A stretch of 64,000 nt of DNA, from contig JBBSOK010000001.1 in NCBI GenBank assembly GCA_038259825.1, positions 3,125 through 67,124 on the forward strand, in the 5' to 3' direction. Every line of letters starts with the position of its first letter. Within the stretch, counting starts at the first letter, position 1. The stretch comes from Flavobacteriales bacterium. GTDB lineage: Bacteria > Bacteroidota > Bacteroidia > Flavobacteriales > Flavobacteriaceae. Made by a program: the position numbers and the translations under genes. Under the pieces are notes generated by a model, which saw only the letters and a program-made list of their open reading frames with translations, made no database searches and was not told where the DNA came from. Below are positions 5,033 through 31,129 of this stretch, piece by piece.

Positions 5033-5035
5033 GTA

Positions 5036-6159: not shown

Positions 6160-6166
6160 AACGTTA

Positions 6167-8587: not shown

Positions 8588-8599
8588 TCTGATTTTGCT

Positions 8600-9442: not shown

Positions 9443-9444
9443 CC

Positions 9445-10014: not shown

Positions 10015-10018
10015 AATA

Positions 10019-13162: not shown

Positions 13163-13801
13163 ATGAAAATGAAAAAAGTGCTCAAAAACGTCAGTTTTGT
13201 CATTTTGCTTCTAAAAATGTGCATCATTTTTGGACAGGAAACTGCTACTCAAAAAAGTATAATTATTGATGTCGGACACGGTGGAAAAGATTCCGGTGCC
13301 ATTGGAATAAATGGTATCCAAGAAAAGGATATTGTACTAAATATCGCTTTGGAAATTTTGAAGCTAAACGAAAAGTCAGAAATGCCACTTGATATCTATT
13401 TGACGAGATATAGCGATACGCTTATTTCGTTATCAGATAGAACAAAATTGGCAAAAACATTGAAAGTGGATTTGTTCATTTCGCTGCATTGTAATCATTC
13501 CAATAATCCGAATGCTAGAGGAATTGAAGTGTATTTGGCAAATGCCACTTCACAATATTCAAAGGATGCCACTTGGTTGGCTTTTCAATTTCAAGCTGCA
13601 TTTAATAAAGAATTGGGATTTGAAAGTAGGGGTGTGAAGTTTGCAAATTTTCAGGTGCTACGGGAAACGATTGATTATTCTCCTAGTGTGCTTTTAGAAT
13701 TGGGCTTTTTGAGTAATGTCGATGAAGCAGTTTATTATCAGAAGTCCGAACCTTATCAATCTTTGGGTTTAGCAATATTAGAAAGTTTAATAAAAATTTA
13801 G
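13163..13801 (+). CDS. N-acetylmuramoyl-L-alanine amidase (Amidase_3 family)
   Basis: A signal peptide is followed by IIIDVGHGGKDSGAIG, then SLHCN and GFLSN motifs typical of AmiA/B/C-type amidases. Confidence 0.85.
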   Translation: MKMKKVLKNVSFVILLLKMCIIFGQETATQKSIIIDVGHGGKDSGAIGINGIQEKDIVLNIALEILKLNEKSEMPLDIYLTRYSDTLISLSDRTKLAKTLKVDLFISLHCNHSNNPNARGIEVYLANATSQYSKDATWLAFQFQAAFNKELGFESRGVKFANFQVLRETIDYSPSVLLELGFLSNVDEAVYYQKSEPYQSLGLAILESLIKI

Positions 13802-13891: not shown

Positions 13892-14860
13892 TTATAGAAT
13901 ATTCCAAATCATCTGCTGTAAATTAAAGGATTCTTCTTCAATCCATTCTTCTTTATCTATAAGGGTCTTAATAAGCTTTAATTCTCTTGTAGAAAAATCT
14001 TGCAATGCTAATCCTGAAAATGCTTTCGTCAAATCCCAATGGCTGTAATGGTAGTCAATATAGGTGCTTATTCTTTTATTAGGTTCATTTGGGTACAATA
14101 GATGAAAATCTTTGTTTCGTACTTTCAGCTTGGCTTTTATTCTCAAATAAATCTTTAAGCCAGCTAAATCCCAATCGCAGGAATAGTAAATTGGCTTTGA
14201 AAGATCGTTTTCATCTATATCATCAATAATAGCGATGTTGTTTCCTCCAACGTACCATAATTTCGTTTGTGTTTCTTTAGCAATCCAAGGTTGTTTTAGG
14301 AAGGATTTATTTTCACACATTATTACAGCTTTCGGATGCGGGCTATCAACTACCAATCGCCATTGATTTTCTTTTTTGTCCAACGGAAATTGTGAAATAT
14401 CTAAAATTTTAAAAACTGCTTTTCTCACGCTCGTTCTATTCTTAAGATATTTTGAGGTGTCAAAAAACTCATTTGAGAAGTCTTCTATGTTAGTTGGATT
14501 GTTCTTTAGTTCTGCCTTGTTTTCTGCAATGAACATTAGGGTCTTTACGTCCTCGATTGTAAAAGCTTTATTTGCTGTTGGCTTAATGTCATTTTCTAAT
14601 AAAAATTTCTTTGCTTCTTCATAAGGTTTTTTGAATTCCTTTTCGTAGAACGTCTCAAACCAATCTGTGGAAACTATAACTTTTATGTTGTCCGGCTTTA
14701 AGTCTAAAATACCTATTTCGTGAATGAGATGGTTAATGTAAGGATGCCCTTGAATTATAGCCTTGGTTCTTTTATTTCGATATAAATCATCAAGAGCCTT
14801 AAGTTCTTTCCAAGTAATGTTCTTATTCATTATCTGATAGAGATTGTATGTATTCGTCAA
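13892..14860 (-). CDS. jetD: Wadjet JetD (Toprim-type nuclease subunit)
   Basis: It is the last gene of the four-gene operon. The Toprim-like acidic motifs are MCENKSF (Glu) and YSCDWDLAG (DxD). An alternative start at 14830 gives an ATGAATAA overlap with the jetC stop. Confidence 0.75.
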   Translation of the reverse strand: MTNTYNLYQIMNKNITWKELKALDDLYRNKRTKAIIQGHPYINHLIHEIGILDLKPDNIKVIVSTDWFETFYEKEFKKPYEEAKKFLLENDIKPTANKAFTIEDVKTLMFIAENKAELKNNPTNIEDFSNEFFDTSKYLKNRTSVRKAVFKILDISQFPLDKKENQWRLVVDSPHPKAVIMCENKSFLKQPWIAKETQTKLWYVGGNNIAIIDDIDENDLSKPIYYSCDWDLAGLKIYLRIKAKLKVRNKDFHLLYPNEPNKRISTYIDYHYSHWDLTKAFSGLALQDFSTRELKLIKTLIDKEEWIEEESFNLQQMIWNIL

Positions 14861-17800
14861 TGTCTTCAGTCACTTCTTCAGAGAATATACCTAAAGGTGG
14901 TACAAAACTATCTACATTGGCCAAGTTGTTCTCATTCATAATATAAATGTATTGACCGTTTTCTGTTATTTCGCCTGCGGTTTCAATTGCCATTGTTATA
15001 ATTTGGTATTTTTCTTTTTTTGCTAGGTCGTGCAGCATATCATAATTGCTTCCCAAACCTTCTGCTTCGTCTATTGGCATAATTTTTAATCCTTCTTTGT
15101 CCTTTTCTTCAATTAGTGATAGCCTAGCCAAGCATAATAAAGCATTAGCCGCATAAGTTTGGCCATTGCTGCCAGAGTTGACCTCTTCGTTTTCGAGTTT
15201 TAACTCAAATACCAAATCAAAATAGGATTTTGGGTTCATTAAATCTTCAGGTTCAACTTTAGTACTACCACCAAGTTTTTGAAATGCTTTAATCATCATC
15301 TCATTAATATCAATTTCTTCGCGTAGCTCACTAAACAAACCTGTATAGTTGAGTTGGTTATGAAGCTGTTTCCTAAAGGTGGTAAGCCAATTATCTGGGT
15401 AGTGAATTGAATTTTTAGAAGTTAATGATGCTTTGTTTCCACCTGTTATACCTCTGTTTCCTTTTTTGAGATAGCTATCAATTTCATTAATCTTGGTAAG
15501 GTATCCTGTATAAACTTTATAAACATCATTAAATATGCTTCCCAATATTTCTACTTTTCTAGAACCGATTTCCTGGATATCTTGAGTCAGTTTGTTTAAC
15601 CTTTCTACAATATCGTTTTCAATTAAATCTTCATTGACTTTGATATTAGGAAATACAGTTGGCAGGAGATAATTTGCCAATTGTCCTATTGAAGCCGTTT
15701 CATCATACGGGAGGTCTTTAGTTATTATCTTTAAATATTCAATATAAGCGAGTTGTGCCTTATTTGCTTTAGCTTGAAAAGAATTGTTTCCACCATTATC
15801 AGGGTCTAAAGCTTCTTCAGTATTTTCGTCAAAATTAATTTTTGATTTAAAAAGCTGTTCGTTTGATTGTTTGGTTTCATCTATTTGCTCTTGTGCCAAA
15901 GTGAGTTGTTTTTCTTTTTGCTCTAAATCTCTATCTAGTTCTTTGATAGCGTCTAAAAGTTGATGTTTTAGATTTAAGAATGCAAGTCTAGATTTAATAG
16001 CAATATCCTTGGAGTACGTTTCGAAAAATAACTTTACATCAAAGTTCTTTTTTTTCAAGTTTTTTTCTTGTTCTGCCAGATGTTGTTCCTCTGAAGCTAT
16101 TCTTTCTTCTATTAATTGATTATTAATAGGAATATCAGCGTCAAAAAGTTCAGACTGTATTTTTTTAAGTCTATTCTGATGATTTTCTAGAAGATTTTTC
16201 CTGCTTGTAAATTCCTCATATTCCTTCTGCAGTGACTTGTATTTTTTAAGGATATTAGTTTTGTTCTTATGTGTCTGTAGATGAAGTTTGAAAAAATCTT
16301 CAGAAAGGCCTGCCAAACTGATGTCAATTTGGAAATTAAATAGCTCGTTTTTTCTTTTATAAAGTCCAATGTGCTTTTCAAGACTACTGTATTCAAAAAG
16401 TGTGTTTTTAAGGTGTTCTATATTTTCCTTTTTCGTAATAAGTTTGGTTAATTTTTCTTCAACCCCTTCCTTTAGTTTAGATAAAGATTTTATAATATCA
16501 TTTGGGTCTTGAACATTTAGAGCACGATGTTCTGAATAATTTATAAACTCATAGACACCGTCTAGATTGAGCCAAAACCCGTGTTTACTTTTATCCTTGA
16601 TATTTAAATCTATATTGCGAAAAAGCTGCTCTGGAAAAGGAACGTATCTTTTGGAATTTTCTTCCGAAGGTTTAAGCTTACCATATTTTTGAAAGTAGAT
16701 TAAAACACTTTCAAGTATATGCGATAGTGGAAATTCTATATTATCTACAGCCCAGTTAACCAAAGATTCAGGGTTGTTTAGATCTGAAAATCTTGATAAT
16801 GATTCCAGTTCTGCTATGTCCTTTTCTAATTCATTGATTTTTTTTGAATGTTCCTTGCTTTCTTCTTTGTAAGCAGTTAGCCAATTGGATGCCTTAAAAG
16901 CATCTAGAATATTATTAGTGGTAAGGTATTTTGTAAATTCTTGTAAAGCAGATTTATTATTATTCTCTTCCAGTTGAGAAGCAAACCATCTAGTTACTTT
17001 TTCAATATTATTATCGTGAGAAGAAAGCCATTTTTCTACTATTTCGATTTGAAGTTTGGACTGACCGATATCTACAAATTGTTTTGCAATATTATTTTTA
17101 TCTTCGTTTTTATCAGTTAGTTTGATAACTTTTTTCATAACGTCCAACAGCTCTTTCAAATCCTCTATTTTTAATTTCAGAATTTCATTTTCGAGAAATT
17201 GTAGCTCGTTCTTTTTTAAATTTAGTTCCTTGGCAATTTTGAGTTTCTTGGTAGTTGTTTTCTTTTTGAAAGTATTCCAGTAACTGAACTTTTTTACTAA
17301 ATATTCCGTGTAGATGGTCTTGTAGTTCTTTTGTTTTTCTAGTACAGTTTTCAGTAAAACTTGCTTGTCATTTATAAGTTCGATTTCTTGAGAATATCTT
17401 TTGTGTTCGTGGAAATCATTACTTATGTTTTCAACTTCTTCATTGTATTTTTCTATGATGGCATTTTTTTCATCATCGCCAAAAAGGAATTTTTTTAAAT
17501 TTTCAGATTCAGTCTTAAAACCTTTCCCTCTTGAAAAAGATCTTAAAATATTCGCATAAGTTTTGAGAGTTTCATCTTTAGTTAAATCTAATGACAAAAT
17601 AGCATTATCGTAAAGGATTTGATGGTAGTCCTTTCTTCTGAACGATTTTATCCTCGCAAACTCAACTCGTTCGCAAAGATTCTTAAGTGTATCAATCTTA
17701 TTGTCTATTATTAAATCCTTATTGAAAACTGGCTTATTCAAAGTAGTCAGACCATCCCAATCGTAGCCATTTTGAATAATGAACATTTCTGCCGCATTGC

Positions 17801-18125
17801 TTGTTCCTTCAATGTAAACCCCAATGACAAAATATTTTTTTGGGCTAACCTCAATGTTCAGAAAAATATAACCTCTAGATGATGAATGACCTTTTTTGGT
17901 AATTAGCATCCCTTTGACATCTCTTTGCTTATTGCCTTCGGTTGCAGATTTAAATTCATTTGAACCTACGAGAACCAACTGAATCATATCTGCAATCATA
18001 CTCTTTCCACTACCACTCTCGCCACTGAAGTCTGTTCTATATGGATGGAAAAGGTAATCAGCATTGAAATGCTGTTTGATACTAATCGTGGACAGACTAT
18101 ATATACGTGGATAATTATTCTGCAT
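14823..18125 (-). CDS. jetC: Wadjet JetC (SMC/MukB-like ATPase)
   Basis: The protein is 1100 aa with N-terminal Walker A GESGSGKSMIADM, a very long K/E-rich coiled-coil middle and C-terminal Walker B IMPIDEAEGLG. Confidence 0.8.
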   Translation of the reverse strand: MQNNYPRIYSLSTISIKQHFNADYLFHPYRTDFSGESGSGKSMIADMIQLVLVGSNEFKSATEGNKQRDVKGMLITKKGHSSSRGYIFLNIEVSPKKYFVIGVYIEGTSNAAEMFIIQNGYDWDGLTTLNKPVFNKDLIIDNKIDTLKNLCERVEFARIKSFRRKDYHQILYDNAILSLDLTKDETLKTYANILRSFSRGKGFKTESENLKKFLFGDDEKNAIIEKYNEEVENISNDFHEHKRYSQEIELINDKQVLLKTVLEKQKNYKTIYTEYLVKKFSYWNTFKKKTTTKKLKIAKELNLKKNELQFLENEILKLKIEDLKELLDVMKKVIKLTDKNEDKNNIAKQFVDIGQSKLQIEIVEKWLSSHDNNIEKVTRWFASQLEENNNKSALQEFTKYLTTNNILDAFKASNWLTAYKEESKEHSKKINELEKDIAELESLSRFSDLNNPESLVNWAVDNIEFPLSHILESVLIYFQKYGKLKPSEENSKRYVPFPEQLFRNIDLNIKDKSKHGFWLNLDGVYEFINYSEHRALNVQDPNDIIKSLSKLKEGVEEKLTKLITKKENIEHLKNTLFEYSSLEKHIGLYKRKNELFNFQIDISLAGLSEDFFKLHLQTHKNKTNILKKYKSLQKEYEEFTSRKNLLENHQNRLKKIQSELFDADIPINNQLIEERIASEEQHLAEQEKNLKKKNFDVKLFFETYSKDIAIKSRLAFLNLKHQLLDAIKELDRDLEQKEKQLTLAQEQIDETKQSNEQLFKSKINFDENTEEALDPDNGGNNSFQAKANKAQLAYIEYLKIITKDLPYDETASIGQLANYLLPTVFPNIKVNEDLIENDIVERLNKLTQDIQEIGSRKVEILGSIFNDVYKVYTGYLTKINEIDSYLKKGNRGITGGNKASLTSKNSIHYPDNWLTTFRKQLHNQLNYTGLFSELREEIDINEMMIKAFQKLGGSTKVEPEDLMNPKSYFDLVFELKLENEEVNSGSNGQTYAANALLCLARLSLIEEKDKEGLKIMPIDEAEGLGSNYDMLHDLAKKEKYQIITMAIETAGEITENGQYIYIMNENNLANVDSFVPPLGIFSEEVTEDIDEYIQSLSDNE

Positions 18126-18795
18126 CTTTTACTTCCTCTATCAAATCGTCAATCGTTTCGATTTGGGGTTGATAGTTAATTCGCAAGCGTTCAAAAGATG
18201 GCATTATTTTGAATTTGTTCTTCTCATCTTCTCTTTCCCATTTTAACCAGCCCAAATCCCCAAATTTTTCAAAAGCCTTGGAAATTACTGTTTCAAATCT
18301 TTGGTCACTCAAATCTGTACTCTTATCGGAAGAATTGTCGTTTATCAGTTTCCTTAATGCATTTTTCTGTTCTTCATATTCCTCATATAAGAGGGTAGTG
18401 AATTCAGATACACTATCCAGTTCAATGTTTCCGTCGAGCTTATACATTTTTAGGTATAACATTCCTATAATGATATATTCGCTTTTTAGATAATCCCGAT
18501 TGTCAGATGGTACATTGCCCTTACCGTCTTCATTAAAGTTTAAATAGTAGTAGTTGTTAAAGTCAGTACCTTCTTTTAAGAGATTTAAATTGAAAAAATC
18601 TTTATAATAGTTTTTAAGTGATTCATAGTTTTCAGACTCGTTTAAAAATCGATATAGGTTTACATTTAAGGGATATTCCCTTTGAATATGAATACCATTT
18701 CTAAGTGTGTAATCAAGTTTTGCAAAAATGCTTTTTGCCTTCTTATTGTTTAAAAAACTATAGGTATCTATTTTTTCTGTATTGTCATCTGCCAT
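18115..18795 (-). CDS. jetB: Wadjet JetB (MukE-like, DUF4194-like)
   Basis: It is an acidic 226-aa protein that overlaps both jetA and jetC. Its size and position fit the jetA-B-C-D order. Confidence 0.65.
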   Translation of the reverse strand: MADDNTEKIDTYSFLNNKKAKSIFAKLDYTLRNGIHIQREYPLNVNLYRFLNESENYESLKNYYKDFFNLNLLKEGTDFNNYYYLNFNEDGKGNVPSDNRDYLKSEYIIIGMLYLKMYKLDGNIELDSVSEFTTLLYEEYEEQKNALRKLINDNSSDKSTDLSDQRFETVISKAFEKFGDLGWLKWEREDEKNKFKIMPSFERLRINYQPQIETIDDLIEEVKDAE

Positions 18796-20087
18796 AAGGA
18801 AATTCCTTTTTTTGCTGTATCGTACACAGGTTCTTTTTTAACACCTACATTGTATTGATTCCTGTATGTAGTGTTCTTTCTTATAATATTGTGGGCTGTT
18901 TTAACAGCGATTGTAAGTTGGTCTTCTTTTAGAATTTTAAAGAAAAGAGGTGTAAAATCAAGAAAACCTTGTAGCTCTAATTCTTTTAATGCTAAATTGG
19001 TCCAATAACGAATTCTCTCTTTGTCCTGCTTCCATTTTAAGGTCTTTTCTAATAGTTCTTTTCTTTTAGAAACATCGACCTTTCTTATTGTAACTTCAAT
19101 GGGCAGTTTAGGACTAATTTCCCTTATTGGGATAACATTGAATTTAAGATTGTGAGTTGTGGACTTTACGACTAACCCTAAAAGGTTATTAGGAAGCTGT
19201 ATTCTTTTTGAACTTCCTTCCCTAGCTACTACTGATTGTTGTAATAAATAGTCAATGAACTTGTTAGTTTTTCTATCAAAATTCTTTTTATTGAAATCAT
19301 AAATGAATTCTCTAATTCGTGGCTTTATTTTTTCAATTCTTTTACTTACTTGTTCTAACTGGCTTCTAGAATTATCGTGAAAATTTTGAACCCTATAAAT
19401 ATTTGAGATATAGTTTTGTCCTTTATTCTCTTCGAGAAGACCAATTAAAAGGTCATCTATATCATAGGAAATCTGAAATGCATTTCTAAGTTCAGATGCT
19501 TGTTCTTTAATTACTTCAAGACGTATTTCAATACCTTTAAGAACATCGAGAATGCCTTGGTTTTCAGAATTTATTTCTGTTTTAAAATCCTTTACAGAAT
19601 CGTTAACCTGTTGGTCTAATATTTCTATTTGTGAAGTAAGTTCGGGAAGCCTAACCTCAAAATGGTCTTCAATCCATTCGTTGAAGTCTTTATTTTGCTC
19701 AATGTTTTCAGTGAGGCTTTTGTGCAATTCCGCGAAGAACCTTTTAATTTTCGCTGGATTGTACTTTTCGATTAAACGCTTTTCAATATTCTGGCAAAGT
19801 TCTAATCCGTATTTTTTGAACTGATAAGTTTTCTTAGAAACATTTCGCCATAGAAAAGACTCTTGAAACCTAAGAATAATAGCATTGTTTCTGTTGAATT
19901 CTGTCCTTGAACTTTCATTGCCCTGGTCCTTGAAGACCTTGTTTATAGTTGATATAATAATCTCTTCTGTGAAGTCTTTATCCTTGTATTTTGAATATAG
20001 AGATAGAAGAATTAATCCATCGTTTTTCTCAGGGATTAGCTTCTCATATTGGTCTTTTGCTTCTCTGTATAGATTAAAACTGTCCAT
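18768..20087 (-). CDS. jetA: Wadjet JetA (kleisin/MukF-like, DUF3375-like)
   Basis: It is a 439-aa helical protein and the first gene of the operon. It is assigned mainly from operon architecture. Confidence 0.65.
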   Translation of the reverse strand: MDSFNLYREAKDQYEKLIPEKNDGLILLSLYSKYKDKDFTEEIIISTINKVFKDQGNESSRTEFNRNNAIILRFQESFLWRNVSKKTYQFKKYGLELCQNIEKRLIEKYNPAKIKRFFAELHKSLTENIEQNKDFNEWIEDHFEVRLPELTSQIEILDQQVNDSVKDFKTEINSENQGILDVLKGIEIRLEVIKEQASELRNAFQISYDIDDLLIGLLEENKGQNYISNIYRVQNFHDNSRSQLEQVSKRIEKIKPRIREFIYDFNKKNFDRKTNKFIDYLLQQSVVAREGSSKRIQLPNNLLGLVVKSTTHNLKFNVIPIREISPKLPIEVTIRKVDVSKRKELLEKTLKWKQDKERIRYWTNLALKELELQGFLDFTPLFFKILKEDQLTIAVKTAHNIIRKNTTYRNQYNVGVKKEPVYDTAKKGISLWQMTIQKK

Positions 20088-20288
20088 AGGTTTATACCTA
20101 AAATAAATTACTTCTAACTATAGTGCACAATTTCCTAATTTATTATCAATTCTCACAATTAATAGGTGTTTAAGTGTTAATTATTTTATATTTGATGTTA
20201 CGAATCGGTAATTAAGCTCAATGTTAAATTGTTGCTTATAAGATTATTAATAATATTATCTCATAATTTTTTTGATACTTTTTAATGA

Positions 20289-22049
20289 ATGACATATGCC
20301 TTTATAGATGAAATACTTGTTGGTTACAATATCGATTTAGAAATATTACGACCAAACACTACACTCTACCGTGCTTCACTGTTGCAACATAAAGGTACAT
20401 TTCATTGCGGTGATACTTTTTTTGGAAACCAAGCAGACGAAACGGGAAAGTTTGTGTCATTCTTTGAAGCTACTAAGGTTAACCATTCTAACCTTGTTGT
20501 AACGCCCGAATATTCCTGCCCTTGGAATGCAATAATACATTTTCTTGAAAATACAGAAACAGCACCAGATACTGGTAGCCTATGGGTTATTGGTTGTGAG
20601 TCTATATCTGTTGAGAGAATACGAGAAATCCAAGACCAGTATTCAGGTGAAAATAATATTGAGATACTTTTTAATGATGATATTGGCGTAGGTAATGTAG
20701 GTGTCCTTCTTGACCCTTGTTGCTATATGTTTAAAGCCCAGAATCCCTATGGTGTTGAGAAGCTTATAGTATTAGTTCAATTCAAAACGCAACATATGGG
20801 CGTTTGGGAGAGCGATTTAGAGCAACAAAAGCTAATTCCAGGTGAACATATATATATTCTTCGCAACGACCCTGATTCAATCAATTTGCTTACGATTATT
20901 TGTTCAGATGCCTTGGTCTTCAATGGTGCAGCAATTTCTGCCCAGCATCCAGGAAGATGGGAAAATTTACCATACATTGTTCTCAGTATTCAAATGAATC
21001 CCAAACCAGCTCACCAAGGTTTTAGAAATTTTAGAGATGGTATTTTACGATTAAATAACAAAGACATAATATCCTTAAATTGGAGCTCTGAAAGCCAAAC
21101 TTCTTTTTCGGCCACTTTTTTTAATAAGTTTTCAAAATCTAATATAACAATTAGTACAGACCATATTACAAATGAGTCTCGGGATGAACAAAATCTAATT
21201 AAAAGTAATCACGATAAAGGACTTTATTATGCGTTTATTAAACCAAAACGGCATACATTTTACTTTAGTGCAGCTAATGAGTTTGCAGTACTCAGAATGA
21301 GAAAACCCTATGCGGGTGCTATCAATCCTGCTTTAGATAGACGTAGAGGGCCTACTATGGATTCCGTTTATCAATATAATTTAGAGCAAAACAATTTCGT
21401 GGAAATAGAAATTATAGACGATGGTCTTCAAAATTTCTTAATGTCTATTGGTATTAGTAGTAATAGCCTAACTGGTGGAGGATTGGACATACTAGACAAA
21501 GAACGATTGATAAACCTGTCAGTTGGTGAGATTGAAATAAAAAATGGGAATGTACAGTGGCAAATCGTTAACAAGCTAAAAAGTTTTTTAATGGAAGATA
21601 CTGAAATCATCAGAAGATACACAGTTACTTTTGATGAGGACGGCAATGAATTCAGAGCAACTCGACTCACTAAATTTGATGAGTTAAATTTAAACATACT
21701 CAACAGACCTGAGTTATTTCCAGATGTTATTGCCACTTTCAAGGATAATTGTGGTGAGGTAATGTTCCTGAATGATGGAAGCTTCAACTACCAATACAAT
21801 TTGGTAAATAACGATGATGAGTATGCAACCGTGGCTCATATAGGAAATAAGGGTAAGGGCGCTGCACAAGCTTTATTGAAAAAGTTAACCGAGCTTTTCC
21901 CGAGAGAGTATAGACAAAACAATAGGATAGTGGTATGGTATAAGCCTAACGTAAATGATTATGACTGTGTAGCCACACCAGTACCTAAAATTTCTAATAC
22001 AGAACCTAACGACTTTACATCGATTACCAAGACTGATGAATCAAGATAA
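20289..22049 (+). CDS. Uncharacterised protein with an N-terminal nitrilase-superfamily (CN-hydrolase)-like domain and an unknown C-terminal domain
   Basis: A Glu-Lys-Cys signature appears in canonical order and context: LVVTPEY (E74), VQFKTQHMGVWE (K166), LIPGE, then LLTIICSDALVF (C205). The spacings are 92 and 39 aa. Residues from about 300 to 586 have no motif I recognise. Confidence 0.55.
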   Translation: MTYAFIDEILVGYNIDLEILRPNTTLYRASLLQHKGTFHCGDTFFGNQADETGKFVSFFEATKVNHSNLVVTPEYSCPWNAIIHFLENTETAPDTGSLWVIGCESISVERIREIQDQYSGENNIEILFNDDIGVGNVGVLLDPCCYMFKAQNPYGVEKLIVLVQFKTQHMGVWESDLEQQKLIPGEHIYILRNDPDSINLLTIICSDALVFNGAAISAQHPGRWENLPYIVLSIQMNPKPAHQGFRNFRDGILRLNNKDIISLNWSSESQTSFSATFFNKFSKSNITISTDHITNESRDEQNLIKSNHDKGLYYAFIKPKRHTFYFSAANEFAVLRMRKPYAGAINPALDRRRGPTMDSVYQYNLEQNNFVEIEIIDDGLQNFLMSIGISSNSLTGGGLDILDKERLINLSVGEIEIKNGNVQWQIVNKLKSFLMEDTEIIRRYTVTFDEDGNEFRATRLTKFDELNLNILNRPELFPDVIATFKDNCGEVMFLNDGSFNYQYNLVNNDDEYATVAHIGNKGKGAAQALLKKLTELFPREYRQNNRIVVWYKPNVNDYDCVATPVPKISNTEPNDFTSITKTDESR

Positions 22050-25000
22050 TTTAGAACAAATATTGCCTGATGGTTATTTAGTCAAGAACTTTGACAACGT
22101 GGAGCAAATTGCTAAGATTGAGCATAATTTTGGAAGTGCCTTAATATCAAAATATTTTATAGATTTAAAATCTGAATATAAAGATATAAATATTAAAGAG
22201 TACCAAGAAAAGTACATATCCAAAGATTATTTTGACGCTGACGGAAATGTACAATGGAACTATTATATAATTTTTGTTAGAGAAAATTTTGATACAGATA
22301 ACAAGCGAGCAATTGAGAAAGACGAAAGTTATGCAAGAAAATTTGTTTTTACGTCAGAAGAACTCAAAAATTACCTGCGTTACCAGCAATCGGATATTGA
22401 AAAAGATGAGGATGTTGTGTCCAGATGGAAACAACAATTAATGGCTGTTGACCTGCAAGAAGTATTCAGTGATGAGCCATACAATCAGGCTGTACCAAGA
22501 TTTGTCGAAGGAAAATCTAAAAAGCCAGATGAGCTTAACCCAATTGATAATAGACCAAACGACGATGAAGATTTTTTATTACAAAAGGTCAGACATCTTA
22601 AGTTAAATGATTCATATAGAAAATTTCCTGAAAAGCGAGATTTTACATTGGGAAAGGTGAATCTTATAACAGGGCCAAATGGGGTTGGTAAGACCTCATT
22701 AATGGAAGGCCTTGAACTTGTAATTACAGGAAACAATTCAAGAAATAATTCTGCAAATAATCATAATGATTGTATTTTGGCTGAATATGTTTCTGACGGC
22801 AAACCTGTTTCTGATGCCTATACCAATTCACTAGGGAAATATAAGGCAAGAGACTACTTCTGGTACAACAATCCTCTAAGTAGATTCAATGAGGCATATA
22901 GAAGTTTTAATCGATATAATTTCTACAATTCAGATAGCGCATATCAACTATCTAACAATCCAAATAGCGAAGAGCTTACCAAATATCTTTCGGCCATAGC
23001 TCTCGGCACAGAATTCGGTTCAATCCGAAAGAGGCTCATTGGTTTTCAAGAAAGATTAAATAAAGAACAAAACAGAATTTCTGATATTATATCTCGGGAA
23101 GAAGAAACTATAGTCAATTCTGAAGTGCAGATTGAAAAGCTAAAAAAGATTTCGAATCCAGAAGTTTTGTTTAAGCAGTTTATTGAGGATGCAAAGTCAA
23201 TAAATTGGCAAAAGCCACTACCTGAAAACCCAGAAGACAAAACTGAACTTTTTGAAAAGGATTATAAGACATTGCTTTCTTATTTAAACGCAATAGTACA
23301 TTCTAAAGTGGTTAGCCATTCTAATGCATTGGACAGACTTAATATACTTGAGGAACTTAAGAAAGACCTAGACCAAAAAGAAAAAGAAAAAAGCACCTTT
23401 AGAAAAGAACATAAAATATTAGAGTTAAGATTAAAAAAACTTAAATCGAACAAAGAGTTAATTAATTGGGCTCTAAAATATCTCGAAAGTCCAAATAATT
23501 TTAGAATTGAGTCTATTAAAGATGAAATAAATAAACTGGAACAAGATATCACGCGATTCGATTCTTTCGATAGTAATATTAAAAAGCTCAATCTTGCGGA
23601 AATTAGCAAGAGCCAAAAGAACATCATTCAACTGACTCGTGATAATGAACAGACTAGAGAGGAAAAAGAGAATAAAAAAGTAGAACTGCAAAGTCAACTT
23701 AAAACATTAAAGTCAACCGTAGATAAGCTCAAATCGGTTATTGCAGAGATAAGATATTATGGAAAAGAATTTGTAGAGATTAAAGGTGACGAGACAGACG
23801 CATGTCCTCTATGCGAAACGCCACAAACGAAAAGCCAGTTACTTCAAAAAGTTGAAAAAATTTATGATGAAGAAGGTGAGGCAAAAAAAATTGAAGGCTA
23901 TAATAAATCCATTGATAAGTTAGAAAAGGAAATTTTGGGAATAGCGAACGAATTAAAAGTCTTAGGTAGTTACCAGAATAATATTAAAAACATTCTATCT
24001 CAAGAGGATGTAAGTAAAACGCTTAATAACGTAAGCACCATTCTCCAAAAGAAAAGAGAGGAAATTGATACTCAACGCAAACAGTTAGAGGAATTGGAAA
24101 CTCTTGAAATCAATTTAAGGTCTAAAGGTTTCTCAGAAGATGATTTACAAGATTTGCAAAAACGAATGATCACAAATTTTAAAGAACTTCATTTTACTAA
24201 AGATGGCAAAGAGGATTTTGAGACCTTTAATAAAAAACTCATAGTCCAAGTCGATGAAACTCATGAAGCAATAGAGAACAGCAAGAAAAAGATAGATGAA
24301 TTAGATTCTAAAATTAAGGAATTGGTTGATAGTAAATATAAAGTTGATGATTATGATACAAAAATTGCTTTTGATATAAAAGAGCTTCAATCACTTCTTG
24401 AATTATTCGATAAAATCAAAAAGATTGTGTCTTTGCAATCCAAAGACTTTATCGTGGAAATTCGTCATTCTGTTGAAAGAGTGTATGAAAAGTTCAAAAG
24501 TTTTAAATCACTTTTGGTGAAATTCGAAGAGCTTAATCTGGCTAACAGTCTTATTATAAAAGCCGATGAAAAGATAAAGAACCAAACCGAAAAACTCAGT
24601 CGAGTTAAATCTGGACTGAAAGTCATCGATGAGATTCTTACGAAGGATAGCCAAGAAAACATACTCGACCTTTTCTTTAGAAAGAATGAAGAAGAAATCG
24701 GTGAAATATTTACTAGAATTCATTCGCCCAAAGAATTCACGGGTTTGTCTATAGATTCTGGCAAAATAAATCTAGAGAAAGGTCTTTTGGGTACAGCCAC
24801 ACCTATAAACGAAATCAGTACTGGTCAAAGAAGTGCACTCGCTTTATCCATATTTTTAGCTTTAAACAGAAAACTTAAAAAGGGGCCAAATATTATAATT
24901 TTTGATGACCCTGTCACTTATACTGACGATTTAAATATTCTTTCATTTTTGGACTATTTACGAACGCTCATTATCAATGAATCAAGACAGCTCGTTTTTG

Positions 25001-25098
25001 CTACGGCAAGTAAGAAAATCGCTGGACTTTTCGAAAAGAAATTCAATTTTTTAGATGAAGATTTCAAAACTTTTGAGCTTTCAAGGACAGATTTCTAA
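22036..25098 (+). CDS. Rad50/SMC-like ABC ATPase with a coiled coil, a CxxC zinc hook and an extra N-terminal domain
   Basis: Walker A is ITGPNGVGKTSLMEGLELVITG (K219). A K/E-rich coiled coil of about 700 aa carries CPLC at residues 590-593, near its midpoint. The signature-like motif ISTGQRSALALS and Walker B IIIFDDP follow. The start overlaps the upstream gene by 14 nt. Confidence 0.8.
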   Translation: MNQDNLEQILPDGYLVKNFDNVEQIAKIEHNFGSALISKYFIDLKSEYKDINIKEYQEKYISKDYFDADGNVQWNYYIIFVRENFDTDNKRAIEKDESYARKFVFTSEELKNYLRYQQSDIEKDEDVVSRWKQQLMAVDLQEVFSDEPYNQAVPRFVEGKSKKPDELNPIDNRPNDDEDFLLQKVRHLKLNDSYRKFPEKRDFTLGKVNLITGPNGVGKTSLMEGLELVITGNNSRNNSANNHNDCILAEYVSDGKPVSDAYTNSLGKYKARDYFWYNNPLSRFNEAYRSFNRYNFYNSDSAYQLSNNPNSEELTKYLSAIALGTEFGSIRKRLIGFQERLNKEQNRISDIISREEETIVNSEVQIEKLKKISNPEVLFKQFIEDAKSINWQKPLPENPEDKTELFEKDYKTLLSYLNAIVHSKVVSHSNALDRLNILEELKKDLDQKEKEKSTFRKEHKILELRLKKLKSNKELINWALKYLESPNNFRIESIKDEINKLEQDITRFDSFDSNIKKLNLAEISKSQKNIIQLTRDNEQTREEKENKKVELQSQLKTLKSTVDKLKSVIAEIRYYGKEFVEIKGDETDACPLCETPQTKSQLLQKVEKIYDEEGEAKKIEGYNKSIDKLEKEILGIANELKVLGSYQNNIKNILSQEDVSKTLNNVSTILQKKREEIDTQRKQLEELETLEINLRSKGFSEDDLQDLQKRMITNFKELHFTKDGKEDFETFNKKLIVQVDETHEAIENSKKKIDELDSKIKELVDSKYKVDDYDTKIAFDIKELQSLLELFDKIKKIVSLQSKDFIVEIRHSVERVYEKFKSFKSLLVKFEELNLANSLIIKADEKIKNQTEKLSRVKSGLKVIDEILTKDSQENILDLFFRKNEEEIGEIFTRIHSPKEFTGLSIDSGKINLEKGLLGTATPINEISTGQRSALALSIFLALNRKLKKGPNIIIFDDPVTYTDDLNILSFLDYLRTLIINESRQLVFATASKKIAGLFEKKFNFLDEDFKTFELSRTDF

Positions 25099-25761
25099 TC
25101 ACTTCCGTTTATCCCCAACCCTCTTATCAAACGCAATTAAATTAAACAGTTCACGCATTCTGCTACGTACACGGTTTCCGTAGCGTTCTTCCAGTTCTTC
25201 AGCGTTGAGATTAGTGGTGGCGTGGGTTTTAATTTTCTTTTTGGTTTGGAGATATAATTCGTAACGAGACAAGAGTACTTCGCCCATTACGTTCAAATCT
25301 TTGCCATAAAATCTTCCAGCAGGTTCAATGCCTAAATCGTCAAAGCAATAGAATTTGGTATTGCCAAATTCCTCGATCGTCTTAAATCCAAGATGGTTAA
25401 AACTAAACGCTACATTCCGGCAGGGAATCATTTCGTATGGTCGTTGCATTGGCACGATATGTCGCATTAGTTTCATCAAAGTAGTCTTTCCACAGCCAAC
25501 AGGTCCAGAAAGAAGAATGCCCTTGTCGGGGTCGATATCATCTTTCAGACAATTTTCTTTGTCTTTGATGAAATAGTGACATAGCTTACGAATGATAACT
25601 GTGTCGTCATCATAGATTCTAAATTGTTTTCCAAAGAGCAACTTCCCCTTTGCATCCAAATAAATTAGGATTTTGTCAAAATCGTATAGAACGCTTTTGC
25701 CATCAAATTTTCCGAGCGAATATTCCACGCAACCTTCGGTAATTTTAGAGGGGTTGTCCAT
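25099..25761 (-). CDS. DnaC/IstB-like AAA+ ATPase (putative helicase loader of the ICE)
   Basis: Walker A is LLSGPVGCGKTTLMKL, Walker B is CFDDLGIE, with sensor THATTNL and YGNRVRSRMRE. I chose the internal Met (MDNPSK) at 25761. The longer ORF to 25989 overlaps the upstream gene extensively. Confidence 0.65.
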   Translation of the reverse strand: MDNPSKITEGCVEYSLGKFDGKSVLYDFDKILIYLDAKGKLLFGKQFRIYDDDTVIIRKLCHYFIKDKENCLKDDIDPDKGILLSGPVGCGKTTLMKLMRHIVPMQRPYEMIPCRNVAFSFNHLGFKTIEEFGNTKFYCFDDLGIEPAGRFYGKDLNVMGEVLLSRYELYLQTKKKIKTHATTNLNAEELEERYGNRVRSRMRELFNLIAFDKRVGDKRK

Positions 25762-26497
25762 AGTCTTTGTTTTTAGTGGTTCGCAAGTTGTCCTTGATTT
25801 GGGACGGTTGTTTTTTGTTTGGTTTGTTTTCCTCGGAATATAATTCTGTTCTGTCCATCCAGTTCGTTGCCAAGGCACGCCAATCTCTAATTTCATTTCC
25901 ATCGCTTGTTTGCCAGTTCCGAGTTTCATAATGCTCGAAGAATTTTTTTCCTTCATCAGCATTAAAACCTTTTTCAATAAAAAAATCAATAACGGCCTGC
26001 CAGCCTTTTGGTTGTTTTATATTGTTTACTTGTTTGGTATTGTTTATAGTAGATACCAATGCTTGTCCACTGATGGGATGGTGCGAGTCCAAAGCTTGTC
26101 CATTTTTGGGATGGTGTTGGTACACTACTGGTTCACGTATGGGATGGTACTGTTCCGCAAGCTGTTCTAATATGGGATTGTACCGTCCCGTAACTGGTTC
26201 ATCACTTGTCCCAATAATGGTCATCTTAATTTTACTGCCTTTATATGGATTGTTGGATGGGAAATAGGATAGGTAAAGCCAAGAATCTAAATCCCTAACA
26301 CATCTGTGGTACGTGGATTTTGAGCCAATTTTAGAACAGCGCATTAAATCCCTTCGATTTACGTAAAATTCGTCTGCAAAGCGACTACTGTTCCATTCTT
26401 GAAATAGCGCCATATACAAACTGATATGTGTAGGATTAAGGCGATCATCAAAGTAGAATTTTTCAAAAGCCGCATTAAGTAGCTTTATATAGTTCAT
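25745..26497 (-). CDS. Winged-helix-like DNA-binding protein, possible replication organiser partner of the ATPase
   Basis: The N-terminal half (YFDDRLNPTHISLYMALF...STYHRCVRDL) looks winged-helix-like. The central part has four 11-aa repeats and the C-terminal segment is W-rich. It overlaps the downstream ATPase gene by 17 nt. Confidence 0.35.
   Translation of the reverse strand: MNYIKLLNAAFEKFYFDDRLNPTHISLYMALFQEWNSSRFADEFYVNRRDLMRCSKIGSKSTYHRCVRDLDSWLYLSYFPSNNPYKGSKIKMTIIGTSDEPVTGRYNPILEQLAEQYHPIREPVVYQHHPKNGQALDSHHPISGQALVSTINNTKQVNNIKQPKGWQAVIDFFIEKGFNADEGKKFFEHYETRNWQTSDGNEIRDWRALATNWMDRTELYSEENKPNKKQPSQIKDNLRTTKNKDYGQPL
26061..26192. repeat. Four tandem 33-bp repeats with a GGGATGGT core inside the winged-helix gene
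   Basis: Core copies lie at 26075-26082, 26108-26115, 26141-26148 and, as GGGATTGT, 26174-26181. The period is exactly 33 bp. The first two units also share GCTTGTCCA. Confidence 0.8.
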
Positions 26498-27107: not shown

Positions 27108-27944
27108 TTACTCTTCGCTTTTATCCATTTCTATAAGTAAGGATGTGGAAAGTTGGTCCAGAAAAAGGGTTCTGCTATTCTTCCTTTTTTTGATTTCTTG
27201 AAAGGTTTTATAGATGTCTTTTGGTGTAAAGTCAAATATCTGTTGCAGTTTTTTAGAAACTTGCATTATGCTTTGGCTATCCTGCTTTCCTAAACCTTTT
27301 GCACAGAGCGCATAAAGTAGTTCCACGTAATCTGTATTAGAAAATGGCCAATGTATTTTTTCTATGGGTTTAATGCTTCTCGATTTACCATTTATACCTT
27401 TTCGAATTTGGAATTTTTTCTCATTTAAATAAACTATTAACGAATCATAAGCCTTGTATTTGCCAAGAAGCATATCCCGAGGTGTGCAAAATTCAGGGTC
27501 TTGGAAATAGAATTTTGAGGTTGTAATGTGAAATGTATCAAGGTAATCCCGTGTGTAGTATTCTTTGTCAAAATGGGTAGCCCCAGAATTGATATATCGT
27601 CCAAAATCTATATTGATAAGAAAAAACCTATTTATCTTTTTGACTTTCTTTCTAATGAATTTTAATTGGTCATCCTTATTTCCTTTTGGAAACTGAACTT
27701 CAAAAGAATGGATTTCTGAAAAGTAAATTAAGTTTATAAGCGGAATTTGTTTGATTTCCTTAAAGAATTTTATTTCTTCCTTAATAGTTTGGAATTCTTT
27801 ATAGAGTATTTCTTTTTTATAGGTTGTCAATAAATTACGACAAGACCTAATAGAACGGTTAGCCCTTTCTAAAATATTATCATATTGATTTTTTATATCA
27901 TCAAGGTCCTGAAGCAATATTTTCGATAGTATTTGAGAATTCAT
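27108..27944 (-). CDS. rteC: RteC-family regulatory protein
   Basis: The C-terminal region (IHWPFSNTDYVELLYALCAKGL...IYKTFQEIKKRKNSRTLFLDQL) matches the conserved RteC pattern of Bacteroidota conjugative transposons. Confidence 0.7.
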   Translation of the reverse strand: MNSQILSKILLQDLDDIKNQYDNILERANRSIRSCRNLLTTYKKEILYKEFQTIKEEIKFFKEIKQIPLINLIYFSEIHSFEVQFPKGNKDDQLKFIRKKVKKINRFFLINIDFGRYINSGATHFDKEYYTRDYLDTFHITTSKFYFQDPEFCTPRDMLLGKYKAYDSLIVYLNEKKFQIRKGINGKSRSIKPIEKIHWPFSNTDYVELLYALCAKGLGKQDSQSIMQVSKKLQQIFDFTPKDIYKTFQEIKKRKNSRTLFLDQLSTSLLIEMDKSEE

Positions 27945-28214: not shown

Positions 28215-29132
28215 TTATTCCACTTTCTTACGAAACCGTTTTAAGAACTCACGTCTATTTTTGACACTTGTCTTTTTAAAAATATTTGAAGCGTGTTTTG
28301 ATACGGTGCTTTCTGCAATGAATAAATCTTTAGAAATATTTCTATAGCTTAAATCACTTAAAATGGAAAGAGCAACCTCAATTTCTCTTCTTGTCAAATC
28401 TTCATAAAAAAACTTACGTTCAATCGCTTCGATCTTTTGCTTTTTTTTGAGAGCGAACACTTCGTGCATTCGGTTATTATTTTCTATAAAGTATAAATAC
28501 CTATCTACTTCAATAGTGGTTATGGCATAGAAGGCCAAGTTCATCACTGTAAAGGTCAACCATTGGTAATCTCCAATAACTGTACAAATAGGTAACAATG
28601 CTATACTTCCCACACTTATAATAGATAATCTATTACGCTTTAAAATAAAGGCATTCGAATTACTTGGATTCGAAATTCGTCTGTAAAATATGAATAGAAA
28701 AATAATGGCAGCTACTGAAATTGGTATGGTAAAAAGAATTCTAGCAGAGGCCAAAGAACCTGTGACAAGATAGGGAACTAAAAATAGAGTGATAAAACTA
28801 ACGGTGGTAAATATGGCAAGATTCCGAATTGAAGAATTAAATTTCAGAACGACAATATCATACTCCTTATAGAGATAATATACAATGTAAATGCACAATG
28901 TGATTGCCACACTATATGTTATGATGTATTGAAGTATAAATGGTCCAGGGAAATTATCAGTAGGAAGAAACCCGCCAGTAGCGTTATAGACAACAAATAA
29001 TAAACCAAGAATTAGAAACCGCTTAAAGTTACTGCCCGGTTTCTTTCCAGAAAAGTAGAGTGTAAACAATACTATAACCGTATCTACTAATAGATAGAAG
29101 AACGTCGTCCAATGTATTGAAGTTCCAAACAT
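28215..29132 (-). CDS. Membrane-anchored LuxR-family transcriptional regulator
   Basis: About 6-7 TM helices are followed by a C-terminal LuxR HTH (LTRREIEVALSILSDLSYRNISKDLFIAESTVSKHASNIFKK). Confidence 0.7.
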   Translation of the reverse strand: MFGTSIHWTTFFYLLVDTVIVLFTLYFSGKKPGSNFKRFLILGLLFVVYNATGGFLPTDNFPGPFILQYIITYSVAITLCIYIVYYLYKEYDIVVLKFNSSIRNLAIFTTVSFITLFLVPYLVTGSLASARILFTIPISVAAIIFLFIFYRRISNPSNSNAFILKRNRLSIISVGSIALLPICTVIGDYQWLTFTVMNLAFYAITTIEVDRYLYFIENNNRMHEVFALKKKQKIEAIERKFFYEDLTRREIEVALSILSDLSYRNISKDLFIAESTVSKHASNIFKKTSVKNRREFLKRFRKKVE

Positions 29133-29797: not shown

Positions 29798-31129
29798 TCA
29801 AAAATTAATTACACTGTCTAAGGCTTCATCTGCATCTTTGTGAATGAAATTAGCCTGATAATTTAAGGTAGTTTTCAAATCACTATGCCTATATAATTTC
29901 TGAAGCATTAATGGATGAATTCGGTCACCAGCAATATTTCCAAAGCTGTGACGCGCGATGTGGTTTGAGAGGTTTTTATCAATGCTGCATTCTAAGGCGA
30001 TTCGTTTTAAATACTTATTGAACAGTTTAGTGGCATTTCTTGTTTTCTTAAATACTTCCTCGTTGTCAGAAATGTTTGTGGTGCTAAGAAATGGAAATAC
30101 ATAGCCATTGTTTTCAGCTTTATATTTCTTATATAGGCTTAAAATATTGACTGCTTTTTCAGGTGTTTTTAAACTAACAGGCTTTTCATTTTTATGCATT
30201 ATGTAAAGGAGTCTATCGTCTTTAAAATCTGACCATCTTAATTGTACAGCATCGGAAATTCTGATTCCTGCAAAGTAAAACGCAATTAACCAAACGTTTT
30301 TGGTATGCCAGATAGAAGTATTTGGTTCTAATTCCAAGATTTCAATCTTTTCAATTTCCTTAGAGGTAAGACCAATCTTATGGCTGGAGCCTATGCGGAT
30401 TTTTTCTTTTTCTCCACCAAAGGGGTAGTACTTTACATCAACAACTCCAATTTTGATAGCTTTGTTGAATAGTGTACGTATAAAAATAAGTTGATTGGTA
30501 ATTGTACGCGTTTTTTGTCCAAGATAGACCAAGCAGAAGTCCTTGTATTTATCTAAAAAAGACTCGTTGATGTCTTGAAACTTTAATGTTTTATCCTTTT
30601 TAAAATACGCTACGGAATCCATAAAAGAATGCTTACCCTTTCTTCCTTTACTTACACGTTCCTTTCTGCGTTCCTTAATCTCCTGGATAATGACTTCTTT
30701 TCCTTGAGCTGTGTTGAGGCTTAAAAACTCTTCTAAGTTGTAAAGAATAGACAGTTCGGATTTTGCAACGGAAAATGTGCCGCGCTCATATTTGTTTTTT
30801 ATTCTATCTGAAGCAACGGCAAAAAATGATTTCGAACCTCCTGCACCCTTTAATTTTTGCTTGACTTGCTTAGTTGTGAGTTCTTTCTTGGAATCGAAAT
30901 ATATATCATTGGCCTCAGTAAGCTTTTTCATTAAGAAGTTATTTAACTTCTTTGAATAAGGATGCGTTCTTTTCACCTTTCCCGCATTTTTATCCCAATC
31001 TTTTTCAAGTACATACTGACCAAGCCACTTATAGTTGGTTTTATAGTTTTCGCTGATACGAATGGCAAGGGGTATTGTATTGTCTTTGCGTATCATATTT
31101 TTTCTCAAAACAATTTTTATACTCGCCAT
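29798..31129 (-). CDS. int: Tyrosine-type site-specific integrase
   Basis: The protein is 443 aa with an N-terminal arm-binding-like domain and C-terminal catalytic motifs (AGIRISD, HIARHSFGN, LYRHSDLKTTLNY). It is adjacent to the tRNA remnant. Confidence 0.9.
   Translation of the reverse strand: MASIKIVLRKNMIRKDNTIPLAIRISENYKTNYKWLGQYVLEKDWDKNAGKVKRTHPYSKKLNNFLMKKLTEANDIYFDSKKELTTKQVKQKLKGAGGSKSFFAVASDRIKNKYERGTFSVAKSELSILYNLEEFLSLNTAQGKEVIIQEIKERRKERVSKGRKGKHSFMDSVAYFKKDKTLKFQDINESFLDKYKDFCLVYLGQKTRTITNQLIFIRTLFNKAIKIGVVDVKYYPFGGEKEKIRIGSSHKIGLTSKEIEKIEILELEPNTSIWHTKNVWLIAFYFAGIRISDAVQLRWSDFKDDRLLYIMHKNEKPVSLKTPEKAVNILSLYKKYKAENNGYVFPFLSTTNISDNEEVFKKTRNATKLFNKYLKRIALECSIDKNLSNHIARHSFGNIAGDRIHPLMLQKLYRHSDLKTTLNYQANFIHKDADEALDSVINF

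Follow-up and report, generated by a model that had tools for sequence, protein, structure and literature searches.

We analysed a window of 64,000 nucleotides from a Flavobacteriales bacterium (assembly GCA_038259825.1, contig JBBSOK010000001.1, positions 3,125 to 67,124 of the forward strand), in which two overlapping plus-strand genes, hereafter gene 1 and gene 2, are cargo of a Bacteroidota integrative conjugative element (ICE). Gene 1 encodes a protein with a nitrilase fold, and gene 2 a Rad50/LmuB-like ATPase with a long coiled coil and a zinc hook. Altogether, the data make it likely that the pair derives from the long-type Lamassu/ABC-3C systems and is a compact form of them with two genes, in which the middle component (MC) has been fused to the ATPase and the effector is of the nitrilase type.

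Organization of the locus

The two open reading frames (ORFs) overlap by 14 nt, and a spacer separates gene 1 from a divergent Mks/Wadjet-like operon, whose last minus-strand ORF ends at 20087 (Table 1). A preliminary description of this DNA, made from the letters alone, had proposed both ORFs with the same coordinates and overlap, which the ORF list and the translations confirm, and an AT-rich spacer of about 200 bp, which is there. The residues that it singled out as functional (E74, K166 and C205 in gene 1; K219, C590 and C593 in gene 2) are real and strongly constrained: each is conserved in all 67 intact gene pairs taken from species-representative genomes, the set used throughout for residue conservation and for the correlation of identities. 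Its reading of gene 1 as a nitrilase-like Glu-Lys-Cys domain followed by a further domain agrees with the structural model and the conservation given below, and its reading of gene 2 as a Rad50/SMC-like zinc-hook ATPase agrees with the LmuB profiles, the structure database profile search and the fold comparison. As to the context, described as Wadjet on one side and an ICE module on the other, the mobile element is borne out by TraG, RteC and an integrase, and a Mks/Wadjet-like operon is indeed found, while the name "Wadjet" proved weak for it, as discussed further on.

Table 1. Coordinates of the gene pair, of its predicted domains and motifs, and of surrounding features in the window
Feature	Position	Strand	Description
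Gene 1	20289-22049	+	586 aa, ATG start (ORF list); proposed LmuA-equivalent effector
Gene 1, N-terminal domain, aa 1-~296	20289-21176	+	nitrilase-superfamily (C-N hydrolase) fold
Gene 1, E74	20508-20510	+	putative catalytic residue; strand-Pro-Glu, after strand 69-71
Gene 1, K166	20784-20786	+	putative catalytic residue; at end of strand 157-165
Gene 1, E178	20820-20822	+	putative second catalytic Glu; E178-x6-G185 after K166
Gene 1, C205	20901-20903	+	putative catalytic residue; between strand 199-204 and helix 207-210
Gene 1, C-terminal domain, aa ~297-586	21177-22046	+	conserved alpha/beta domain, confidently modelled, structured to ~567
Gene 2	22036-25098	+	1020 aa, ATG start; proposed MC1-LmuB fusion, Rad50/SbcC-like ABC ATPase
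Gene 2, N-terminal alpha/beta domain, aa 1-~170	22036-22545	+	putative fused MC1, LmuC equivalent; invariant W74, Y77, R101, K102
Gene 2, Walker A GPNGVGKTS, aa 213-221	22672-22698	+	K219 in 67/67 copies and in 31 homologues
Gene 2, antiparallel coiled-coil arms, aa ~301-895	22936-24720	+	secondary structure of the model
Gene 2, zinc hook CPLC, aa 590-593	23803-23814	+	coiled-coil apex; C590/C593 in 67/67 copies and in 31 homologues
Gene 2, ABC signature motif STGQR, aa 928-932	24817-24831	+	alignment
Gene 2, deviant Walker B IIIFDD, aa 953-958	24892-24909	+	Asp-Asp for Asp-Glu; DD in 65/67 copies
Gene 2, H-loop position FATAS, aa 988-992	24997-25011	+	histidine absent
Intergenic spacer	20088-20288		presumed promoter region; 201 bp, 20.9% GC
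TATATTTG	20187-20194	+	resembles Bacteroidota -7 box; inside the spacer upstream of gene 1
Mks/Wadjet-like four-gene operon	13892-20087	-	JetC match and MksE domain
Type IIG restriction-modification enzyme	1931-5032	+	1033 aa; PADLOC REase_MTase_IIG, E 8e-50
TraG	10019-12421	-	ICE context
Two overlapping ORFs directly 3' of gene 2	25099-26497	-	295 and 249 aa; no Pfam/PADLOC match
RteC	27108-27944	-	ICE context
304-aa ORF	28215-29132	-	weak CARF-like PADLOC match (3.7e-4)
Tyrosine integrase	29798-31129	-	ICE context

Gene 1 carries a nitrilase fold and a C-terminal domain of its own

The family of gene 1 comprises 508 clusters at 50% identity, nearly all of ~575-590 aa, and every source annotates it as "hypothetical". 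AlphaFold2 (AF2), given the family alignment as input, produced a confident model (predicted local distance difference test, pLDDT, 90.8; predicted template modelling score, pTM, 0.90). When this model is compared by Foldseek with the Protein Data Bank (PDB), the top 45 matches are all nitrilase-superfamily structures, at probability 1.0 and with E down to 1.6e-6 (5g3o), their TM-scores being moderate (TMt 0.45-0.56, ~0.5 for 5g3o). Formamidase AmiF, aliphatic amidases, N-carbamoyl amidohydrolases and the glutaminase domain of NAD synthetase are among the enzymes found. The matches span ~270-300 columns and correspond to the N-terminal half of the protein, which folds in the model as the alpha-beta-beta-alpha sandwich of this superfamily. 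A PDB profile search with gene 1 returned no nitrilase, and one spurious match at E 0.22. The Mre11/SbcD-like fold, also a four-layer sandwich, was considered and rejected (E 0.17-0.5 versus 1e-6 for the nitrilases), and no viral structural relative of gene 1 was found in BFVD.

In the model E74, K166 and C205 appear at the canonical nitrilase positions, and E178-x6-G185 would fit the second catalytic Glu. The first three residues are invariant in an alignment of 49 gene-1 homologues, with identity down to 26%, and the tetrad E74-K166-E178-C205 is kept in 67/67 intact genome-derived copies. Because this putative catalytic tetrad is 100% conserved, gene 1 is probably an active enzyme.

The domain at the C-terminus (CTD), ~290 aa long, contains the conserved motifs NHxKGLYY, RRxGP, KERL and VVWYK. 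It gave no significant structural match in the PDB—the solved LmuA chains included—or in BFVD. Most likely it docks onto the ATPase/MC.

Gene 2 is a Rad50/LmuB-like ATPase with a degenerate catalytic site

The five best ATPase-length matches to gene 2 are the PADLOC models of LmuB. The first of them, PDLC03865 (E 2.8e-30), aligns aa 303-1004 of gene 2 with positions 242-986 of a model of 1007, and other LmuB models reach 2.4e-28 and 2.2e-15. The Pfam and NCBIfam matches are generic ABC/SMC/Rad50 ones only. With the gene-2 family profile, the PDB yields archaeal Rad50 (4e-11), then LmuB of Salmonella (9hqu, 2.5e-4) and SbcC (2e-3). The AF2 model (pLDDT 82.6) displays an ABC head in two parts (about 184-300 and 896-1014), a ~600-residue coiled coil and an apical CPLC loop, and Foldseek relates it to Rad50 (1e-13), Smc5/6, MukB and the LmuB structures 9hqu and 9uxh (2e-7 to 1e-5). 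The hook is recognised by Pfam Rad50_zn_hook in 4 of 31 gene-2 homologues. Gene 2 is thus, like LmuB, a coiled-coil ABC ATPase of the SMC/Rad50 kind.

LmuB of long Lamassu systems has a Walker B of the form hhhhDD, a CxxC hook and an average length of ~800 aa (Haudiquet et al., bioRxiv 10.1101/2025.04.02.646746). Both hallmarks, the hhhhDD Walker B and the single CxxC hook, are found in gene 2, which without its N-terminal domain measures ~830 aa, near the length of long LmuB. For comparison we used locus L090 (Bacillus sp. S3 plasmid NZ_CP039728), found by tblastn of plasmids with gene 2. It is a canonical three-gene ABC-3C operon with a metallo-beta-lactamase (MBL) hydrolase, a trypsin-like protease with Pfam CTD5, a free 185-aa Middle Component 1 (MC1; MComp1, 46 bits) and a 963-aa SMC ATPase. 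The H-loop histidine, which this canonical ATPase keeps in the motif "ISTH", is absent across the whole gene-2 family (FATAS/FATAN). The Asp-Asp Walker B together with the loss of this histidine suggests a strongly attenuated ATPase, whose ATP turnover would be slow and switch-like.

The N-terminal domain of gene 2 resembles a middle component

Two gene-2 homologues have a precomputed match to PF20289, which is MComp1, the ABC-3C Middle Component 1. Scanning the homologues with this model gave matches in 4/31 members, at residues ~48-122 (P0346 30.6 bits, P0335 27.0, P0354 21.9), the first of these exceeding the gathering score of 27.3 bits; a fifth homologue, the ATPase of a Polaromonas plasmid, matches at residues 70-117. 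Gene 2 of the window aligns gap-free with the MComp1-matching homologues over the conserved core (QWNYY..IF, IEKD..YARKFVF). Besides, hhalign aligns aa 71-156 of gene 2 colinearly with residues 73-147 of the free-standing MC1 of L090 (E 1.5e-3, 33% identity), both motifs being common to the two. These alignments support the identification of the N-terminal extension as a probable MC1. As it matches MComp1, the middle gene would have been fused onto the ATPase, so that the middle component of Lamassu/ABC-3C would be present here as an N-terminal fusion; being MC1, this domain would place the system in the ABC-3C/Lamassu lineage.

The two genes are inherited together

Scanning 185,579 species-representative genomes gave 119 relatives, and the figures for loci refer to the best 80 of these 119. 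A gene-2 homologue follows directly downstream on the same strand in 75/80 loci, with a gap of -14 to +9, the commonest arrangement being a 4-nt overlap; adjacency is observed in 77/80 overall. The pair is adjacent but inverted in one locus (L081), and rearranged in another, L035 of Methanosarcina sp. KYL-1, with fragments of gene 2 on both sides. In two loci (L075 and L076) the contig stops before gene 2 could appear, and a single one (L066) has an orphan gene 1; there, a 1081-aa ORF upstream was considered as an alternative ATPase partner and rejected as unrelated. No intervening or middle gene occurs between gene 1 and gene 2 in the 80 loci, and the order is that of a tightly linked operon: effector, (MC), ATPase, as in Lamassu. 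In the rearranged locus of Methanosarcina (4875-13433), the 1687-aa ORF upstream of the gene-1 homologue has both ATPase head segments and a much shortened coiled coil, and the downstream ORF, of 560 aa, starts with an MC1-like domain and then diverges.

The pairwise identities of gene 1 correlate with those of gene 2 (r = 0.96; 0.80 among pairs below 40% identity), so that the two genes travel, diverge and co-evolve together. Their distribution is patchy across bacterial phyla, methanogens and haloarchaea. Among bacteria, the best 80 loci belong to Bacteroidota, Leptospira, Bacillota, Nitrospirota, Verrucomicrobiota, Planctomycetota, Acidobacteriota, Alpha-, Beta- and Gammaproteobacteria, Campylobacterota and Actinomycetota; the archaeal ones belong to methanogens and to one Bathyarchaeota metagenome-assembled genome. 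Plasmids also carry the pair, namely a conjugative IncP plasmid and plasmids of haloarchaea; a search of phage genomes found no copies.

For 70 loci, the genes flanking the pair most closely (121 in all) were scanned with Pfam. The commonest families were ResIII, DEAD, N6_N4_Mtase, type I S subunit, phage integrase, DUF2130 and RE_endonuc, and N6_Mtase, RmuC, HD-CE, Eco57I, nSTAND3, resolvase and BrxL were present too, so that RM subunits, nSTAND3, BrxL, HD-CE, integrases and resolvases make up most of the immediate surroundings. These observations support that the pair is a conserved, co-inherited module of defence islands and mobile elements. The preliminary description had made its reading depend on homologous pairs being kept together and lying beside defence genes, and the survey agrees with it on both counts: the pairs stay adjacent and diverge in step, next to restriction-modification (RM) systems, other defence genes and integrases.

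Comparison with known systems

The closest known system is the long-type Lamassu/ABC-3C of the MC1-CTD5 kind ("Hydrolase-Protease" type), of which L090 is an example. Like it, the pair has a Rad50/SbcC-like ATPase with a long coiled coil (the heads match with 99% hhalign probability), the hhhhDD Walker B, MC1, the order effector, MC, ATPase, and carriage by mobile elements. On the other hand, MC1 is fused to the N-terminus of the ATPase in the window and is a separate protein in L090, the effector combines a nitrilase fold with a ~290-aa CTD in place of the trypsin-like protease-CTD5 and the MBL hydrolase, and the H-loop histidine of gene 2 is lost. The pair thus departs from MC1 long Lamassu on three points: its MC is fused to the ATPase, its effector has a nitrilase fold, and the C-domain of this effector lies outside the recognised CTD families.

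With type I Lamassu (LmuA-LmuB, short clade S), the pair shares the two-gene operon, effector then SMC-like ATPase. An example is LmuAB of Bacillus cellulasensis, which has been shown to recognise DNA ends as a complex of LmuB and LmuA in a 2:1 ratio (10.1101/2025.06.23.660979). The two-gene state differs in kind: type I systems have lost LmuC and have a short LmuB (~600 aa) and a nuclease effector, whereas the pair keeps the MC as a fusion, a long ATPase and an amidase-type effector. DdmABC, the Lamassu of Vibrio cholerae, which is active against plasmids and phages, resembles the pair by its three functional parts and by the presumed logic of sequestering then releasing the effector; it differs by MC3, CTD7, a Cap4 nuclease effector and a short, hook-less LmuB.

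SbcCD/Mre11-Rad50 provides the best sequence and fold matches of gene 2 in the PDB, and has in common with it the zinc hook and the length class of the coiled coil; SbcCD has been proposed as the ancestor of Lamassu (Haudiquet et al., 10.1101/2025.04.02.646746). Unlike SbcCD, the pair comes without a Mre11/SbcD phosphoesterase partner, its Walker B and H-loop are degenerate, and its distribution is patchy and linked to mobile genetic elements. In the reverse transcriptase (RT)-nitrilase defence systems (DRT/UG class; Rst_RT-nitrilase-Tm), a domain of the nitrilase superfamily is the presumed anti-phage effector. There the sensor is a reverse transcriptase, unlike here, and gene 1 showed no similarity of sequence to them (no match to Pfam CN_hydrolase). 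Finally, membership of the pair in Wadjet (JetABCD) was rejected: gene 2 matches JetC at the level of the P-loop only (1e-5), and has a zinc hook, not a MukB-like hinge; no kleisin, KITE or Toprim partner accompanies the pair, and the Wadjet-like element is a neighbouring operon.

Proposed assignment to the Lamassu/ABC-3C lineage

Because gene 2 matches the LmuB profiles and carries the hhhhDD Walker B, we consider the pair a probable derivative of Lamassu/ABC-3C and not a new kind of system. A 2023 review reports that LmuC is missing from some systems, and lists "C-N hydrolase" among the effector domains of LmuA/ABC-3C, which may or may not refer to the family of gene 1 (PMC10586767); by its nitrilase fold, gene 1 has an enzymatic effector domain of a type in that list.

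The preliminary description had already recognised in this pairing of an ATPase with an effector the logic of Lamassu/ABC-3C, had noted that a separate middle gene was missing, and had offered the N-terminal extension of the ATPase as a possible substitute. The data support all three points, the last by the MComp1 matches in five homologues and by the alignment with free MC1. It had gone too far in calling the system undescribed, gene 2 being within reach of the LmuB profiles and bearing the Walker B of long Lamassu, and in taking a nitrilase-fold effector as unrecognised in the Lamassu role, since the review already names the C-N hydrolase. It had also stated that a full match of both proteins to a named defence model would show the system to be a known one: this occurs in part, for gene 2 and with the scores of a distant relative, and not for gene 1.

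Several observations weigh against the assignment. The LmuB scores of gene 2 (~100 bits over 700 residues) are at the level of a distant relative and not of a member of any of the modelled subfamilies. Gene 2 of the window itself falls below the report threshold of MComp1 in hmmscan, so that its link to this family is transitive, through the alignment with homologues, and the match to free MC1, despite its E value of 1.5e-3, has a low hhalign probability (17%). As for gene 1, the window protein matches nothing in Pfam, NCBIfam or PADLOC, no LmuA model of the latter included, and 49 members of the family gave only noise against Pfam, with no CN_hydrolase (PF00795) at E<=1. Of these 49, none matches the Pfam families of ABC-3C CTDs at E<=1, and the CTD has no similarity to the CTD5 effector of L090. 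A profile search with the CTD alone returned 40 matches, all fragments of the same two-domain family, in a word-indexed search from which distant relatives could escape. As only this family came back, a shuffling of domains like that of LmuA is not demonstrated for gene 1, and this missing modularity of the CTD is the main gap in the assignment. From the literature, Haudiquet et al. count nine Lamassu effector domains, none of them a nitrilase or amidase, and find the loss of LmuC only in the short clade (10.1101/2025.04.02.646746). Searches of the literature for a Lamassu with an amidase or a nitrilase brought up no relevant work. DefenseFinder presumably has a "Lamassu-Amidase" subtype, which may or may not be the family of gene 1 and gene 2.

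Part of these observations would also suit a separate, unnamed SMC/Rad50-like defence system, in line with the reading of the preliminary description, having only a distant Lamassu ancestry, its own docking of the effector and possibly a different trigger. Gene 1 has no relative among the defence, Pfam or NCBIfam models and its CTD none at all among known domains, the LmuB scores are low for the length of gene 2, Rad50 ranks above LmuB both in the PDB sequence search and in the fold search, the architecture of the pair is fixed and non-modular, and the H-loop differs from the "ISTH" of the canonical ATPase. We nevertheless regard such a system as unlikely: MComp1, hhhhDD, the single hook, the order effector then ATPase and the LmuB matches all indicate the ABC-3C/Lamassu lineage, and every solved LmuB structure belongs to the short type, which should lie farther from long forms than Rad50/SbcC does.

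The carriage of the pair by an ICE and by conjugative plasmids could also suggest that it serves the mobile element and not immunity, either as a DNA-end processing or repair device derived from SbcCD or as a maintenance/addiction module, the nitrilase-fold protein being then structural or regulatory. Gene 2 is indeed most similar to Rad50/SbcC, some homologues are annotated "exonuclease SbcC", and the anti-plasmid activity of Lamassu (DdmABC) blurs the limit between defence and competition among mobile elements (PMC10586767). This explanation is nonetheless quite improbable: a Mre11/SbcD-type nuclease partner is missing, the degenerate Walker B and H-loop would ill suit a processive repair ATPase, the fully conserved amidase tetrad argues for an enzymatic activity, and at many loci the pair sits in a chromosomal defence island next to RM systems and not in the backbone of a mobile element.

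Genomic surroundings of the pair

In the divergent operon next to gene 1, the SMC subunit alone is recognised by PADLOC JetC (7e-11) and by Pfam MukB_N, while the second gene is identified as MksE; neither the putative JetA (438 aa) nor the putative JetD (321 aa) matches any model of Pfam or PADLOC. The label "Wadjet" thus rests on a weak JetC match and an MksE domain only, and the operon is very divergent. Within the spacer, the resemblance of TATATTTG to a -7 box carries no weight, since the motif TAnnTTTG, with 82 occurrences against 102 expected, shows no enrichment in the window. The type IIG RM enzyme is a further defence gene in the cargo of this ICE, and ORFs like the two that directly follow gene 2, by size and position, are present in the related ICEs L001, L009 and L013.

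An operon of similar size stands directly upstream of the pair, in the same direction, in at least eight other Bacteroidota loci (L001-L003, L009, L011-L013, L037), while it is inverted in the window. Outside Bacteroidota another cluster appears: in L006-L008, a ResIII/RE_endonuc protein, DUF1016/YhcG, an N6_N4 methyltransferase of ~950-1050 aa, the pair and a UvrD helicase are all co-directional, the stop of the methyltransferase overlapping the start of gene 1, and genes of similar sizes occur in L039, L047, L051, L052, L064 and L065. This cluster may represent a composite island, or else a functional supersystem. Five genes flanking the pair match PADLOC "mad5" (MADS system). A DEAD/DEAH-box helicase is found upstream of both plasmid copies, directly adjacent to the pair in L091 (Natrarchaeobaculum pAArc1-01) and ~4 kb away in L089 (Polaromonas IncP pPNAP01).

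That the pair is not autonomous but an accessory of a larger system—the Mks/Wadjet-like operon in Bacteroidota, a type III-like RM with UvrD elsewhere—might be proposed from the co-directional JetABCD-like operon, from the methyltransferase and UvrD genes bracketing it and from the recurrence of ResIII, N6_N4_Mtase and mad5 among its neighbours, but is very improbable: the pair stays constant while the flanking systems vary with the lineage, the copies of Leptospira and of plasmids come without either partner, and the operon of the window, being inverted, cannot be co-transcribed with the pair.

Possible mode of action and significance

For other Lamassu systems, structures have established that LmuA is sequestered, then oligomerises (10.1101/2025.06.23.660979; 10.1101/2025.04.02.646746). 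By analogy with these solved complexes, we propose how the pair, as a Lamassu derivative, might form a complex, be triggered and provide defence. Gene 2 would be the equivalent of the sensor LmuB, presumably dimerising through its CPLC zinc hook, and the dimer would keep the gene-1 effector as an inactive monomer by means of the gene-1 C-domain. Foreign DNA ends or aberrant replication intermediates would be sensed and, with ATP binding and slow hydrolysis, lead to the release of the effector, which would then oligomerise into its active form. The active effector may act on an essential metabolite or on a protein by cutting an amide (C-N) bond, or deamidate proteins; the resulting growth arrest would block the spread of the phage or plasmid. 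Enzymes of the nitrilase superfamily generally need oligomerisation for their activity, and for this reason a scheme of release and oligomerisation would fit gene 1 well.

Going further, the pair might stand for a third, self-contained Lamassu lineage beside "short" and "long", defined by the permanent fusion of the MC, an unseen docking fold and a new abortive-infection chemistry—amide hydrolysis triggered by DNA ends and dependent on oligomerisation. We hold this extension to be tentative and rather doubtful. Its target would be, for example, a NAD-related or glutamine-derived compound, or proteins undergoing deamidation. If true, it would give a first handle on the action of nitrilase-type effectors in the immunity of prokaryotes, among them those that are fused to the reverse transcriptases of defence systems.

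To our knowledge, Lamassu is among the most widespread SMC-based immune systems, and only its nuclease (and lipase) effectors have been studied mechanistically. The pair extends this known family and does not overturn current concepts. Its effector is invisible to Pfam, NCBIfam and PADLOC 2.0, so that annotation overlooks the family. The natural fusion of MC and ATPase fixes their stoichiometry and puts the middle component beside the ATPase head, which bears on the assembly of long Lamassu. Besides, the two genes offer a tractable system in which to look for what a nitrilase-type immune effector acts upon, a question common to the RT-nitrilase systems. The presence of the pair in more than 10 phyla, in methanogens, in haloarchaea, on ICEs and on IncP plasmids indicates a successful mobile module.

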